A DNA stretch of 64,000 nucleotides from an uncultured bacterium (GTDB taxonomy: Bacteria; Bacteroidota; Bacteroidia; CAILMK01), in NCBI GenBank assembly GCA_903829945.1, contig CAIKRV010000063.1, positions 26,502 through 90,501 on the forward strand, written 5' to 3'. Positions 5,184 through 21,441 of the stretch are shown here, piece by piece. Position 1 is the stretch's first letter. Every line of letters begins with the position of its first letter. Under the pieces are notes generated by a model. The model ran no database searches, was not told the DNA's origin, and saw only the letters and a list, made by a program, of their open reading frames with translations. The position numbers and the translations under genes are program-made.

Positions 5184-6155
5184 ATGTCTGTTCTCGTTTA
5201 CGCTGAAAATATAGAAGGAAAATTTGGTAAGCCCGTTTTAGAAGCAACTACTTATGCTTATGATACGGCACAAAAATTAGGGACTTCAGTAACTGCAGTA
5301 GTTATTGGAGCAGCTGCTCCGGAAGAACTAAATAAATTAGGGCAGTACGGTGCTCAAAAAATATTACACATTTCTGATGCCAGATTTGATTCCTTTAATG
5401 TGGGTGCCCTTGCAAAAACGTTGCAGGAAGCGGCTCAAAAAGAATCTGCGGATGTGATTATAATGAGTGCTACTTTCAATGCCAAGGCTATTGCTCCACG
5501 CCTATCAGCTCGTATGAAAGCAGGATTGGTAAGTAATGCCATCGGACTTCCGGAAACAGGAAATGGTTTTCATGTAAAAAAAGCTGTTTATTCCGGAAAA
5601 GGATTTGGTCATTTTAATATTACCAGCGCAACTAAAATTTTAACCATCTCTATTAATTCTTATCATTTAAAAAATATTGGCGCAAGTGCAATTATTGAAT
5701 CTTGGACACCAAGTTTAAGTGACCAAGATTTCCCGGTTAAGGTCATTGAAACCAAAAGACAAAAAGGCAAAGTATCCCTTACGGAAGCAGAAATTGTAGT
5801 TTCCGGCGGACGTGGTATGAAGGGTCCTGAAAATTGGGGAATGATAGAAGAATTGGCGGACTTACTAGGAGCCGCTACAGCATGTTCAAAACCGGTTTCA
5901 GATATTGGATGGAGACCGCACAGCGAACACGTTGGCCAAACGGGATTAACCATTTCTCCCAACCTGTATTTTGCCATTGGTATTAGCGGTGCCATTCAGC
6001 ATTTGGCGGGGGTAAGTTCCAGTAAAATTATTGTTGCCATCAATAAAGACCCGGAAGCACCTTTCTTTAAAGCTGCGGATTATGGCATTGTTGGTGATGC
6101 TTTTGAAGTATTGCCACAATTAATTGCTGAAGTAAAAAAGATAAAAGCAAACTAA
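5184..6155 (+). CDS. etfA: Electron transfer flavoprotein alpha subunit
   Basis: 323-aa protein. The C-terminal FAD-binding region reads PHSEHVGQTGLTISPNLYFAIGISGAIQHLAG, which is typical of EtfA. It is 13 bp downstream of etfB. Confidence 0.9.
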   Translation: MSVLVYAENIEGKFGKPVLEATTYAYDTAQKLGTSVTAVVIGAAAPEELNKLGQYGAQKILHISDARFDSFNVGALAKTLQEAAQKESADVIIMSATFNAKAIAPRLSARMKAGLVSNAIGLPETGNGFHVKKAVYSGKGFGHFNITSATKILTISINSYHLKNIGASAIIESWTPSLSDQDFPVKVIETKRQKGKVSLTEAEIVVSGGRGMKGPENWGMIEELADLLGAATACSKPVSDIGWRPHSEHVGQTGLTISPNLYFAIGISGAIQHLAGVSSSKIIVAINKDPEAPFFKAADYGIVGDAFEVLPQLIAEVKKIKAN

Positions 6156-6199
6156 TTTTCTTAATTTGCAATAACGAATAAGTGCAGGAATAAAATTCA

Positions 6200-6802
6200 A
6201 TGGAAAAAATACAATTACATATCCTTGGTATTTCATCAGGTCACACTTCCTCCTCCTATACACTTATTTTAGAAGAAACTGACGGTGAGCGAAAGTTACC
6301 CATTATTATCGGTGCTTTCGAGGCTCAGGCTATTGCCATAGAAATAGAAAAAATAGTTCCGGTGCGCCCTATGACCCATGATTTATTTTTTAATTTAGCC
6401 ACGGCCTTTCATTTAAAAATAAAAGAGGTACTGATTCATAAGTTGCAAGATGGCGTTTTTTATGCCAATATTGTTTGTACGGACGGGACCACCGAAGAAG
6501 AAATTGATGCCAGAACTTCCGATGCCATTGCTTTAGCATTGCGCTTTAAATGCCCTATCTATACTTACGAAGAAATCATGTCCGAAGCGGGTATAGTACT
6601 TGGAGATAATGATACTGAACCGGCCACAGGCGAAGCCGCTCCGGCTGCCCCTAGTGCTCCGAAGCCGAAAAAATCAAAGGATACACTTTCCTCCTATTCC
6701 ATAGAGGAATTAGAAAAAATGCTCGAAGAATCCTTAGATGAGGAAAATTATGTTTTAGCAGCTAAAATTCGTGACGAGATTAAGAAAAAACAAGACCATT
6801 AA
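6200..6802 (+). CDS. Bifunctional nuclease (DUF151/BFN domain) with a C-terminal UVR motif
   Basis: 200-aa protein. The N-terminal BFN-like region reads LPIIIGAFEAQAIAIE. The C-terminal UvrB/UvrC-type motif reads EELEKMLEESLDEENYVLAAKIRDEIKKK. Confidence 0.65.
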   Translation: MEKIQLHILGISSGHTSSSYTLILEETDGERKLPIIIGAFEAQAIAIEIEKIVPVRPMTHDLFFNLATAFHLKIKEVLIHKLQDGVFYANIVCTDGTTEEEIDARTSDAIALALRFKCPIYTYEEIMSEAGIVLGDNDTEPATGEAAPAAPSAPKPKKSKDTLSSYSIEELEKMLEESLDEENYVLAAKIRDEIKKKQDH

Positions 6803-18354: not shown

Positions 18355-19452
18355 TTAAACGTTAAATCTAAAATGCATGATGTCGCCATCGGCTACTACA
18401 TATTCCTTGCCTTCCACTCTTATTTTTCCTGCATCGCGGCAGGCAGATTCTGAGCCGTAGCTGATAAAGTCTTGGTAAGAGATCACCTCCGCCCTGATAA
18501 AGCCTTTTTCAAAATCGGAATGGATGACACCTGCAGCTTGCGGTGCTTTAGTATTCAGTTCTATTTGCCAAGCGCGAACTTCCTTGACCCCTGCCGTAAA
18601 ATAAGTGATTAAATTTAGCAATCTATAGGCAGTAGTTATTAATCTATGAACACCCGGCTCCTGCAAGCCGTACATACTTAAGTATTCTTTGCGTTCTTCC
18701 AAGGTGGCTAATTCTGCTATTTCGGATTCAATCTTAGCTGAAATAATTAATAATTCTGCATGCTCATCCTTAATGGCTTCTCGCAATTGATCTACATGGG
18801 CATTTCCATGAAGTACAGCTGCTTCATCCACATTGGCTAAGTAAAGCACCGGCTTTATTGTAATTAAATGTAAATCACGAATTAATTCTTTCTCTTCGGG
18901 TGTCATTTCCATGCTTCTGATGGATTTGGCTGCCTCCAAATGATTTTTGGCGCGTTGCAAAACTTCTAAAGTTTTTTGCAGGGTCTTATCCCCTCCTTTG
19001 GCTTGCTTTTCAATGCGCTGAATACGTTTCTCAACACTATCCAAATCTTTCAGCTGCAATTCGATATCAATAATTTCTTTATCACGTACCGGATGCACGG
19101 AACCATCTACATGAATTACATTAGGATCATCAAAACAACGTATCACATGTATAATAGCATTGGTATCTCTGATATTTCCTAAAAATTGATTGCCTAATCC
19201 TTCCCCTTTGGAGGCACCTTTAACCAAACCTGCAATATCTACTATTTCAATAGTATTGGGCAATACATTCTGCGGATTGACCAACTCGGTTAATTTTAAT
19301 AATCGAGGATCCGGAACGGTAATTACGCCCACATTGGGTTCAATTGTACAAAAAGGGAAATTGGCTGCTTGCGCCTTTGCGCTTGATAGAGAGTTAAATA
19401 GCGTTGATTTACCCACATTTGGTAATCCAACTATACCACATTGTAATGCCAC
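18355..19452 (-). CDS. ychF: Ribosome-binding ATPase YchF
   Basis: The G1 motif reads [15 protein letters not shown] and the C-terminal TGS domain is present. The GTG at 19450-19452 ([10 protein letters not shown]) matches the canonical YchF N-terminus better than the upstream ATG at 19500. Confidence 0.9.
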
Positions 19453-19832
19453 GTCTTGATTATAATTTAGAACTACAAAGGTAGGCAAAAGAGCCCGCAT
19501 GCCCTAAAATTATGTACTGCCCCTCTATTTTTAATCGTTTTTAGAAGATAATCAAGGCATATTGGATAGATTTTTTTGAAATATTGACAAAGTACTTATT
19601 TAGAATTTAAAGATTTATGTCAAATTTTTAAAATATTTAAGGCTTCAAAATCAAGGAAGGCTATACATCCAACAATGGGACATCATCATTTTAATATTTT
19701 ATTGAACTGTTTATCAATATGTTATAAAATAAGCCCTATATAAATCATTCAAAAAGTGATGCAAAATATGTTCCTTCTAAACAATGTAAGTAAATGGCTA
19801 AGCTTGCTATTTTTCAAGGATAAAAATGCCTT

Positions 19833-19840
19833 TAGATTTG
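19833..19840 (+). promoter_or_regulatory. Candidate Bacteroidota sigma-A -7 element (TAGATTTG, an exact match to TAnnTTTG). It sits ~55 nt upstream of the first hairpin in the array.
   Basis: TAGATTTG at 19833-19840 is an exact match to the Bacteroidota -7 consensus, on the same strand as the downstream terminator. TTG/TTTT lies 20-27 nt upstream. Confidence 0.35.
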
Positions 19841-19895
19841 AATCATAATTTAAATGTAACGCAAATAAGCAAAAGCTCTACAAACCAAATTAAGT

Positions 19896-20299
19896 CTAAT
19901 CCCGTAAGATTAGCGAAACGCACACAAAGCATAAGCCCCGTAAGGCTTATCTAGAATGGAATCCCGTAAGATTCCGGAACAACATAGCAAGTAAAACCCC
20001 GTAAGGTTTTACAACATGAAGCCCCGTAAGGCTTCGGAACAAAACAAAAAGATAACCCCGTAAGGTTATTTAAGTTGAAGCCCCGTAAGGCTTCCGAAGA
20101 AGACAAAAAGTAAAACCCCGTAAGGTTTTATAAGATGAAGCCCCGTAAGGTTTCGGAACAAGATGAAAGGTAAAGCCCCGTAAGGTTTCACCATGAAAGA
20201 ACCCTCCAAGGTTCAAAAATTAAAGCAAGTTCAACTTGCAAAAAATAAAAGGTGAGATCCCGTAAGGTCTTCCAAAAGTGCGGATCCCGTAAGGTCCCG
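19896..20299 (+). repeat. Tandem ~60-bp two-hairpin repeat units (about 5 units, then degenerate copies)
   Basis: Units such as ggaacaacatagcaa-gtaaaaccccgtaaggttttac-aacat-gaagccccgtaaggcttc repeat with a ~60-bp period. The stems vary (aagcc/ggctt, aaacc/ggttt, taacc/ggtta, gaatc/gattc, agatc/ggtct, ggatc/ggtcc) but always stay paired. Confidence 0.7.
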
Positions 20300-20311
20300 A
20301 AACAACAAATG

Positions 20312-20340
20312 AAAAGCCGATATTTTATCGGCTTTTTTTA
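20312..20340 (+). terminator. Intrinsic terminator (aagccgat-atttt-atcggctt followed by T6)
   Basis: 8-bp GC-containing stem, followed by TTTTTT on the + strand. The minus-strand reading has only U4, so the + orientation is the stronger one. Confidence 0.65.
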
Positions 20341-20391
20341 TGTCTTTTAGCTAACGCTAAAATTAGTTTATCAGTATTATGGACTCAGCAC

Positions 20392-21441
20392 TTATTTATA
20401 GTATTTGTACTTATAGATGGCAGCTACGCTGCCATCAGCATCCGTAAATACTTCAAGTAATAGTTTACCTGAAGCATCATATGTATATGTATATCTATAT
20501 ATTAATACTCCAGGTGCGGTGCTGCGTTTCAGTTCCGTTAAATTGCCTTGCTTATCATATTTATATTTTGTTACGTAGCCCCATTGTTCATGTTGAGGTT
20601 CTTCATATTCATCATAAACATGGCCGGATTTATCGTATTTATACTTGATAAATTTGGTAATGGTATCCTTATCAAAATACTGCTTTTCAATAATTCTTTG
20701 ATTTTTATCCCTAAAGTATCGGTATCCTTCTGTTACAGCTCCGTCTTCTAAGGTTTTACGACCCATTGGCAAATCTGAATCATCATAAATACACTCCTCC
20801 ACCTCCCGGAGGGCATCTTGATCATCATAATATTTATATTTGGTAATCAATCCTTTAGGAGTACGTTCATAATCCACTTTAGGGAAGACCACACTTTTAT
20901 ATCCAAATATTTCTTTTTCAGATAAATACCCTTTTTCGTAGCGATAAAAACGATTCCCACGCAAGGTGTCTTTTTCTGCAGAATTAATTGCAAAGGTATA
21001 TCGATCACTGCTGCTTAGATAGCCATTGCTATCGTTATAACTATATTTAGTACTATCATACAAGTAGCGACCACCTTCGTAATGCGTTGATACAGAAGCA
21101 TTTATTTTACAATTTGGTAAATAATGCAATTTATGATGCAGTTCAATTTTACAAGGATCATTACCTTCATGAAGACATCCATTCAGGAATATAGGCTTAT
21201 AACCGGCATCCAATTTTAATTCAAATACTTTTTCAGGATGGGTATTTAAAATAGTATCCGCACCGGAATACCTGTAAACTTCCATACCATGGAGCTTATT
21301 CAATCTAAAGAGTTTTAAATCAATGCCATGTTCCGGAATTTGTGGAATGCCTTGATCATCATTTAGCTCATATTGCGCAAAGCAAATCTGACTCAAGCAA
21401 AGCAGGATAAAGGTAAATATTATTGGCATTGGCAAGGGCAA
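20392..21441 (-). CDS. Secreted YD-repeat (Rhs-repeat-like) protein
   Basis: 349-aa protein with signal peptide MPLPMPIIFTFILLCLSQICFAQ. It has repeated YD motifs (KYKYDKQGNLTE, YTYDASGKLL, KYKYDKSGHVYDEY). Confidence 0.55.
   Translation of the reverse strand: MPLPMPIIFTFILLCLSQICFAQYELNDDQGIPQIPEHGIDLKLFRLNKLHGMEVYRYSGADTILNTHPEKVFELKLDAGYKPIFLNGCLHEGNDPCKIELHHKLHYLPNCKINASVSTHYEGGRYLYDSTKYSYNDSNGYLSSSDRYTFAINSAEKDTLRGNRFYRYEKGYLSEKEIFGYKSVVFPKVDYERTPKGLITKYKYYDDQDALREVEECIYDDSDLPMGRKTLEDGAVTEGYRYFRDKNQRIIEKQYFDKDTITKFIKYKYDKSGHVYDEYEEPQHEQWGYVTKYKYDKQGNLTELKRSTAPGVLIYRYTYTYDASGKLLLEVFTDADGSVAAIYKYKYYK

Follow-up and report, generated by a model that had tools for sequence, protein, structure and literature searches.

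What fills the gap upstream of ychF in an uncultured member of the Bacteroidota? The window, i.e., the whole stretch of DNA analyzed here, comprises 64,000 nucleotides (nt) of contig CAIKRV010000063.1, and two of its minus-strand open reading frames (ORFs) are separated by an intergenic region of 891 bp (19501-20391). A first-pass annotation of the sequence had placed a candidate noncoding RNA (ncRNA) in this region, a tandem array of hairpins that display one invariant loop. The array proved to be as annotated in every detail, and its interpretation as a structured RNA is supported. We estimate a probability of roughly 0.85 that the array represents a real family of structured RNAs read from the plus strand. 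The family is found across Bacteroidota and is apparently undescribed.

Twelve hairpins with one loop

The array consisted of 12 hairpins at positions 19896-20297 of the plus strand, each with a stem of 5-8 bp, a closing C-G pair, and the hexaloop CCGUAA (C-CCGUAA-G). The annotation had counted 12 such hairpins in uniform orientation, and the motif counts bear this out: CCCGTAAG was found 13 times in the window, with 12 copies in the array, all on the plus strand, as opposed to 0.79 +/- 0.87 copies in dinucleotide shuffles. When 150 hairpins of the family were used to build a covariance model, an unfiltered run over the 64 kb returned 12 matches, all in the array and on the plus strand (E <= 0.011); the next best match had an E value of 0.71. 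No further C-CCGUAA-G hairpin was found outside the array in the 64 kb, either by a relaxed regular-expression scan or by the covariance model. The folding z-score of the array was -6.7 on the plus strand and -4.5 on the minus strand, which favors the plus strand.

All 12 were found by the regular-expression scan and matched by the covariance model. Hairpin 1 (ctaatc-CCGUAA-gattag, 19896-19913), also read directly from the sequence, is identical to the first hairpin of a related array, L213. Hairpins 2 (ataagcc-CCGUAA-ggcttat, 19931-19950) and 3 ((t)ggaatc-CCGUAA-gattcc(g), 19957-19976) precede hairpin 4 (gtaaaacc-CCGUAA-ggttttac, 19991-20012), where Tandem Repeats Finder placed the start of repeat units with a 60-bp period, 3.8-4.2 copies, and ~80-82% identity between units. 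This period corresponds to the two-hairpin unit that had been proposed. Hairpins 5 (20017-20036) and 7 (20077-20094) share the stem gaagcc-CCGUAA-ggcttc and flank hairpin 6 (gataacc-CCGUAA-ggttat, 20050-20071); hairpin 8 (gtaaaacc-CCGUAA-ggttttat, 20110-20131) is followed by hairpin 9 (gaagcc-CCGUAA-ggtttc, 20136-20155), which has one G.U pair. Hairpin 10 (gtaaagcc-CCGUAA-ggtttcac) spans 20170-20191, or 20173-20188 without its A-C mismatch, and contains one G.U pair. The last two are hairpin 11 (gagatc-CCGUAA-ggtctt, 20254-20271), with two G.U pairs, and hairpin 12 (ggatc-CCGUAA-ggtcc, 20282-20297), with one U.G pair.

Two more plus-strand hairpins were read from the sequence between hairpins 10 and 11. 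One, gaacc-CUCCAA-ggttc (20199-20214), is the single variant copy that the annotation had reported; the other, gcaagt-UCA-acttgc (20225-20239), is small, unrelated to the array, and lies within the predicted transcript. Between 19954 and 20160, the GC-rich hairpins are followed by cGGAAcaa, with GGA in a single-stranded linker (three copies, plus one cCGAAg), a feature of this locus only that is not conserved in related arrays.

The ORFs of the gap encode only 42-51 amino acids (aa), in agreement with the earlier statement that it holds no credible ORF. A small-ORF reading of the array was rejected because every frame is interrupted by the TAA of the loop and by a spacing indivisible by three.

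A family of arrays in Bacteroidota

Relatives were sought in one genome per GTDB species as sets of three CCCGTAAG motifs spaced 12-36 nt apart, with at least 120 matches. Among the matches listed, at least ~21 loci had real stems of >=5 bp, and all but two were labeled Bacteroidota; the carriers included Adhaeribacter aerolatus, A. aquaticus, a Chitinophagaceae isolate, Chitinophagales, Flavobacteriales, Chryseobacterium, and Bacteroidia metagenome-assembled genomes (MAGs). The two exceptions were L073, labeled only as an uncultured bacterium, and L102 (CALRTD020000047.1), which is labeled as a Synechococcus sp. MAG yet has a typical Bacteroidota-type array and was probably mis-binned. A stricter pattern applied to metagenome contigs gave 42 loci, 32 of them with real arrays, including some from soil metagenomes. 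The matches listed in the two scans together provided 58 arrays at 53 loci for analysis. These contained 2-19 hairpins each (median, 4.5), with a median loop-to-loop spacing of 34 nt and a median linker of 14 nt, and the 12-copy array of the window was the second largest in the sample.

Most matches outside Bacteroidota among L001-L120 (Streptomyces, Bifidobacterium, Clostridia, Chloroflexi, and others) were coding tandem repeats with periods that are multiples of three, in which only the closing pair was complementary. Triple-motif matches from IMG/VR (viral loci L128-L182) and those in giant-virus MAGs were likewise coding repeats without stems, unrelated to the hairpin family. The plasmid and phage collections contained no blastn match to the locus, and no viral, plasmid, or phage copies of the array were found in the sets searched.

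Single CCGUAA hairpins outside arrays numbered ~10 in ~450 kb. The loop is thus also used outside arrays. Two isolated examples in L208 (+12491 and -2249, oriented coordinates) have 8-10-bp stems and T-rich tails and resemble ordinary gene terminators.

Stems covary and the loop is retained

The stems of the array had been said to differ only by compensatory changes. The 333 motif hairpins collected from the family contained 180 distinct 5-bp stem cores. We made an ungapped alignment of 150 distinct hairpins, counted pairs over an 8-bp helix, and compared the counts with 500 shuffles and with controls in which the partner column was slid. A standard pair was present in 75.9% of cells as opposed to 53.8% after shuffling, and 369 cells were changed on both sides as opposed to 173. 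The covariation score was 0.606, compared with 0.207 for the shuffles, none of which (0/500) reached the observed value; the 150 hairpins mix paralogous copies with orthologues and are therefore less independent than the shuffle control implies. The controls with a slid partner column are free of that flaw, and in them a shift of one to three columns reduced the score to <=0.20. Each of the four pairs beside the closing pair was formed in 81-96% of sequences, with all four Watson-Crick types found at each position.

RNAalifold was applied to the first 92 nt of the transcript in five mostly syntenic arrays (group B, described below, with L216 and L195). Both hexaloop hairpins were recovered, with compensatory double changes in four pairs. 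The hairpins of the family have the compensatory pairs and, as shown below, the strand-specific tolerance of G.U by which a structured RNA is recognized.

The loop read CCGUAA in 290 hairpins within arrays. Variants were few: CUGUAA was found nine times; CCAUAA, an A-U closing pair, and a CCCGUAAA loop were found twice each; and CUCCAA and CUGCAA were found once each.

The functional strand

The annotation had left the orientation of the RNA undecided. Computationally, five independent lines of evidence agree on the CCGUAA (plus) strand. The non-Watson-Crick pairs in unique stems comprised 30 G.U and 12 A.C pairs, an A.C pair on one strand being a G.U pair seen from the other. The linkers contained 47.6% A and 17.0% T, compared with 29% each in the surrounding DNA. 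Internal hairpins that were followed by a U tract, and hence resembled terminators, numbered 0 of 290 on the plus strand and 41 of 290 on the minus strand; a minus-strand transcript therefore could not cross the array. A plus-strand terminator was found at the 3' exit of 31 of the 51 arrays with enough downstream sequence. Finally, 17 of 58 arrays had the promoter-like composite element "TTTG + N0-2 + ATCAT" on their upstream side, sense oriented, whereas 2 of 48 had it at the position expected for a minus-strand promoter. Several arrays start 12-100 nt past the stop codon of a plus-strand gene.

Could the minus strand be the functional one? Its c-U(UACG)G-g tetraloop hairpins and U-rich tracts would then act as a tandem terminator or attenuator for the convergent gene at 20392-21441 or form the leader of ychF. 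UACG is a stable UNCG-type tetraloop, the 41 terminator-like hairpins include examples from the window, and both in the window and in group A (see below) the 3' end of a minus-strand gene lies immediately right of the array. We nevertheless regard this reading as very unlikely. The G.U excess favors the plus strand, conservation of the promoter and leader is confined to the plus side, and many arrays precede plus-strand genes or directly follow plus-strand stop codons. The covariance model had no minus-strand match at the locus in the unfiltered 64-kb scan. Moreover, a minus-strand transcript would end at the first one or two hairpins, making 12-19 copies pointless.

Candidate promoter, leader, and terminator

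The array would constitute a stand-alone ncRNA gene of ~490 nt on the plus strand, extending from a -7 box (19834-19841) to an intrinsic terminator (20311-20343). The promoter-like box, TAGATTTG, lies 55 nt ahead of the first stem, at the distance previously reported, and matches TAnnTTTG, the -7 consensus of Bacteroidota. It aligns with the corresponding sequences of L213, L205, and L224, as does the 5' leader that follows it on the plus strand (19842-19895; AATCATAATTTAAA ... CTACAAAC ...). In the alignment of these four leaders, the blocks ATCATAAT, TAAA, and TTTACAAAC were conserved before the first hairpin, and the version of the promoter and leader found in the window (TTTAGATTTGAATCATAATTTAAA...CTACAAAC...) could be aligned with the other three up to the first hairpin. 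Transcription would start near 19846-19850.

The terminator, GAAAAGCCGATA-TTT-TATCGGCTTTTT followed by TTAT, has a 12-bp stem and a T7 tail (20311-20337) and begins ~13 nt past the last hairpin, much as had been annotated. Promoter-like and terminator-like sequences are present on the same strand at the locus and are conserved in relatives. The terminator at 20311-20337 is bidirectional in shape, with an A tract, a stem, and a T tract, and is located 55 nt past the end of the convergent gene (20392-21441). To judge from this arrangement, it probably ends both the array transcript and that gene.

The genes on both sides of the gap are encoded on the minus strand. On the left is YchF (18355-19500), with Pfam matches to YchF-GTPase_C and MMR_HSR1; on the right is a 349-aa protein (20392-21441) with a weak match to RHS repeats, whose gene is convergent with the plus-strand array. 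The mechanical ychF ORF begins with an ATG at 19500, and the conserved N terminus begins at a GTG at ~19452. The gap had been put at 890 bp, which stands for the interval between mechanical ORFs (891 bp), but it measures ~939 bp if GTG 19452 is the true start of ychF, as it probably is.

Comparison with known RNAs and repeats

Rfam 15 had no match above the gathering threshold in the 64-kb window or in the arrays of 19 related loci, where the sole match was a cobalamin riboswitch elsewhere in L117. Focused E-value searches with the locus, L203, and L117 gave only subthreshold matches driven by terminators. Full-text literature searches, whose coverage was incomplete, found no description of CCGUAA/CCCGTAAGG or of a tandem-hairpin RNA in Bacteroidetes, and the array is absent from the RbpB/FopS paper, the Flavobacterium psychrophilum transcriptome paper and its supplements, and the 104-motif paper. 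The earlier claim that no described family has a CCGUAA loop thus held for both Rfam 15 and the literature searched.

The closest analogy is to CsrB, RsmZ, and RsmY of Gammaproteobacteria. Like the array, these are stand-alone ncRNAs in which many short hairpins repeat one loop motif in variable copy number between a promoter and a Rho-independent terminator, and they titrate their target by avidity, as is proposed here. However, their loop is A(N)GGA rather than CCGUAA, CsrA is not known to be a partner of the array, no Csr/Rsm model of Rfam matched, members of the present family also lie just downstream of coding genes, and mRNA leaders in the ~450 kb examined had no single copies of the hairpin. 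Membership in the CsrB/RsmZ group was rejected: all 12 loops are CCGUAA, and GGA occurs only in some linkers at this locus and is unconserved in relatives. To our knowledge, Bacteroidota generally lack CsrA, Hfq, and ProQ. Other precedents for a titrating RNA to which the array can be likened are CrcZ for Hfq/Crc and EutX for the ANTAR protein EutV.

ANTAR sites resemble the array in having short hairpins with 6-nt loops, paired or in tandem, to which a loop-specific protein binds, and EutX/Rli55 provides a precedent of a decoy RNA that carries such hexaloop hairpins (PMC8934654). By definition, an ANTAR hexaloop has A as its first base and G as its fourth (PMC8934654), whereas the loop of the 290 array hairpins is C1 C2 G3 U4 A5 A6. 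ANTAR sites also overlap terminators in 5' leaders, where they act by antitermination. The arrays, in contrast, are long, lie 3', and do not overlap alternative terminators, with 0 of 290 internal hairpins being terminator-like on the plus strand.

Several other classes were considered and rejected. Bacteroidales-1 RNA (RF01693) is also a Bacteroidota ncRNA bounded by a promoter of the phylum type and a terminator, and it is often located downstream of the L20 gene, as group B arrays are; however, it is restricted to Bacteroidales, is not a hairpin array, and its covariance model had no match in the window or the 19 loci. ToxI of type III toxin-antitoxin systems similarly consists of tandem short structured RNA repeats that follow one promoter and precede a terminator, but its repeats are nearly identical 34-36-nt pseudoknots, after which comes a toxin gene in the same orientation. 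The gene downstream of the array (20392-21441) is convergent and resembles RHS repeats, and no endoribonuclease gene or other downstream gene is conserved across the family. CRISPR, with its nearly identical direct repeats of 23-50 nt and unique spacers of comparable length, was rejected given that the stems differ, the linkers are A rich with a median of 14 nt, and the CRISPR-DR model scored 19.8 bits against a threshold of 50; no Cas protein was found among the five flanking ORFs scanned.

Elements of the REP/BIME type likewise form intergenic hairpin clusters, often between convergent genes, which can stabilize upstream mRNA and stop transcription. The array might accordingly be viewed as a DNA-level repeat, either REP/BIME-like or a selfish minisatellite, or as an array of sites for a DNA-binding protein. 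Its copy number varies, its 60-bp units (~80-82% identity) reflect recent tandem duplications, and its position is not conserved among relatives. We consider a DNA-level origin extremely unlikely all the same. REPs have a conserved stem sequence and are scattered as hundreds of copies of alternating orientation, often in inverted pairs, whereas the arrays have variable stems (180 distinct cores), a fixed loop, and direct orientation throughout. The array was confined to a single locus in 64 kb, and singletons were rare in ~450 kb, so that the REP-like scatter that the annotation had named as a counterargument was not seen. The G.U excess and the A-rich linkers are signatures of RNA. Finally, the conserved loop is nonpalindromic, and a duplex operator would constrain the stems as well.

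A possible multivalent binding site

The predicted RNA would be a string of 12 independent hairpins with 5-8-bp stems, plus one degenerate copy, all displaying CCGUAA. The single-stranded linkers, A rich and U poor, may keep the hairpins independent and prevent premature termination. Since the stems vary freely but distant lineages of Bacteroidota have the same loop and closing pair, we infer that the recognized feature is the loop displayed on a helix. The loop would be the recognition element of a putative trans-acting reader, most probably a protein, and its repetition would confer avidity, with the RNA acting as a decoy (sponge) that titrates the binder or as a scaffold on which it assembles. 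The number of copies varies between 2 and 19 among relatives through tandem duplication; multivalent binding is therefore the most likely mode of action, and we give it about even odds. Both the binder and the titration effect are proposed by analogy with the sponge RNAs discussed above.

Several observations weigh against this interpretation. The constancy of the loop is partly circular, the search having demanded three exact copies per locus, although most arrays hold more exact copies than that. A Csr-like circuit predicts single target hairpins in mRNA leaders, and none with CCGUAA was seen in the ~450 kb examined. The loop is also found on ordinary terminator hairpins, namely, the third hairpin of group A and the L208 singletons, which fits a structural or stability role. 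The flanking ORFs at 53 loci revealed neither a candidate binding protein nor a co-occurring gene. Lastly, the locus turns over quickly, because the array is not kept upstream of ychF in relatives. Seven YchF relatives were 77-84% identical, and only the closest (84%, on a 3,961-bp contig) retained the RHS-like neighbor, with a gap of 1,455 bp; the array was absent upstream of ychF in the other six (77-83%).

Genomic context of the arrays

In an all-against-all BLAST of the flanking ORFs at the 53 loci, no gene recurred throughout the family. What the loci shared was limited to local synteny groups and generic protein families, among them T9SS C-terminal-domain proteins, ABC ATPases, and RarA. 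Group A (L024, L112, L063, L092, L117, and L200) has a minimal three-hairpin version of ~100 nt, in which the last hairpin is a bidirectional terminator. The cobalamin riboswitch of L117 (RF00174, 99 bits, 5335-5553 on the minus strand) lies ~2 kb from the three-hairpin RNA and is probably unrelated to it.

Arrays were also found just 3' of small genes. The largest, with 19 hairpins (L221, ~300-1000), directly follows the stop codon of a CsbD-family general-stress gene, and others follow genes for YtxH (L211), BON-domain proteins (L220 and L223), a Cys-rich protein (L212), and PanB (L186 and L191). By position, these arrays apparently lie in the 3' untranslated regions (UTRs) of the genes or just beyond. 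The hairpin module would there probably function within the 3' UTR or as a 3'-UTR-derived RNA. In two Adhaeribacter species, A. aerolatus NBRC 106133 (L020) and A. aquaticus DSM 16391 (L109), with two arrays each, four paralogous genes for secreted SH3b proteins of 90-98 aa are each followed by their own array after 28-133 nt, and gene and array seem to duplicate as one unit. The panB-downstream arrays (L186, ~6030-6215, and the homologous L191) interleave a second type of hairpin with the loop CAACCC (gaagcg-CAACCC-cgcttc and ggagc-CAACCC-gctcc).

These positions bear on the main rival to multivalent binding, namely, that the arrays are cis-acting modules for stability and insulation. The 3'-end hairpins would block 3'-to-5' exonucleases and convergent transcription, and the loop would be kept for its favorable fold. 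Arrays are always located at transcript 3' ends, many of them 12-100 nt past the stops of small genes (those for CsbD, YtxH, SH3b, and PanB). Their last hairpin is often the terminator, the 41 of 290 hairpins that are terminator-like on the opposite strand would block antisense read-through, and the single CCGUAA hairpins of L208 look like ordinary terminators. Even so, many arrays, including that of the window, have their own promoter-like element and no upstream coding sequence to protect. A bare nuclease barrier would need neither an invariant 6-nt loop and closing pair across distant lineages nor up to 19 copies. CCGUAA is also not known to be among the specially stabilized loops of the standard nearest-neighbor tables. 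On balance, a role confined to stability and insulation appears possible but rather doubtful.

Group B comprises L019, L188, L203, L204, L215, and L217. The arrays of L019, L188, L215, and L217 lie downstream of thrS-infC-rpmI-rplT, and L203 and L204 are linked to them through other common flanking genes. This setting raises the question of whether the loops mimic or pair with tRNA. They might serve as seeds for RNA-RNA pairing, CCGUAA with UUACGG, as in the anticodon loop of tRNA-Arg(ACG/ICG), or as mimics of the tRNA-Thr anticodon loop that decoy an enzyme or toxin. Five contiguous loop bases are complementary to the UUACG core of the tRNA-Arg(ACG) loop, and YGUAA resembles N34-G35-U36-A37-A38 of tRNA-Thr. 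The commonest variant, CUGUAA, retains GUAA and would retain Thr identity, and the group B arrays are directly downstream of the thrS cluster. However, an anticodon loop has 7 nt, including U33, whereas the present loop has 6 and no U33, and most arrays are not near thrS. No tRNA genes adjoin the arrays, the only two found (L195) being ~3.5 kb away. The related idea of an operator for ThrRS was rejected: the leader of thrS in L019 lacks a CCGUAA hairpin, which also counts against anticodon mimicry. Pairing with or imitation of tRNA is thus unlikely.

A CRP/FNR-type palindrome, TGTGA-N6-TCACA, was observed ~55-60 nt upstream of the -7-like box in L188, L203 (~690-705), L204, L215, L217, L195, L216, and L019. 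This placement suggests that the group B array RNA may be under the control of a Crp/Fnr-family regulator. In the window, a weak half-site (GTGA at ~19757) is all that is present. The genes upstream of arrays include stress-type families (CsbD, YtxH, and BON), which points tentatively to a connection with stress, and these contexts, together with the CRP/FNR-like operator, hint at conditional expression.

Implications

Because the phylum lacks the classical global RNA-binding proteins, little is understood of how Bacteroidota control their RNAs after transcription. We tentatively suggest that the arrays may belong to a posttranscriptional circuit of the phylum's own, in which C-CCGUAA-G would be recognized by a putative RNA-binding protein or else by a toxin or enzyme specific for anticodon loops. 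Such a circuit would be set by regulated decoys of 3-19 sites, either standing alone under a CRP/FNR-like operator or placed in the 3' UTRs of general-stress genes.

The architecture of the array is known from sponge RNAs; its recognition motif is new. With an invariant putative recognition element of a size suited to a protein, variable valency, and a conserved promoter-like element in several lineages, the family offers a concrete handle on RNA control in Bacteroidota, and the transcript can be used directly as bait for a partner. If that partner proves to be a global regulator, the arrays would represent a phylum-specific titration system of the Csr kind. If there is no partner, one hexaloop hairpin would serve across Bacteroidota as a transcript-end module. 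Either way, the arrays form a family that is lacking in Rfam 15 and account for otherwise empty gaps of 0.1-0.9 kb in many environmental Bacteroidota genomes.

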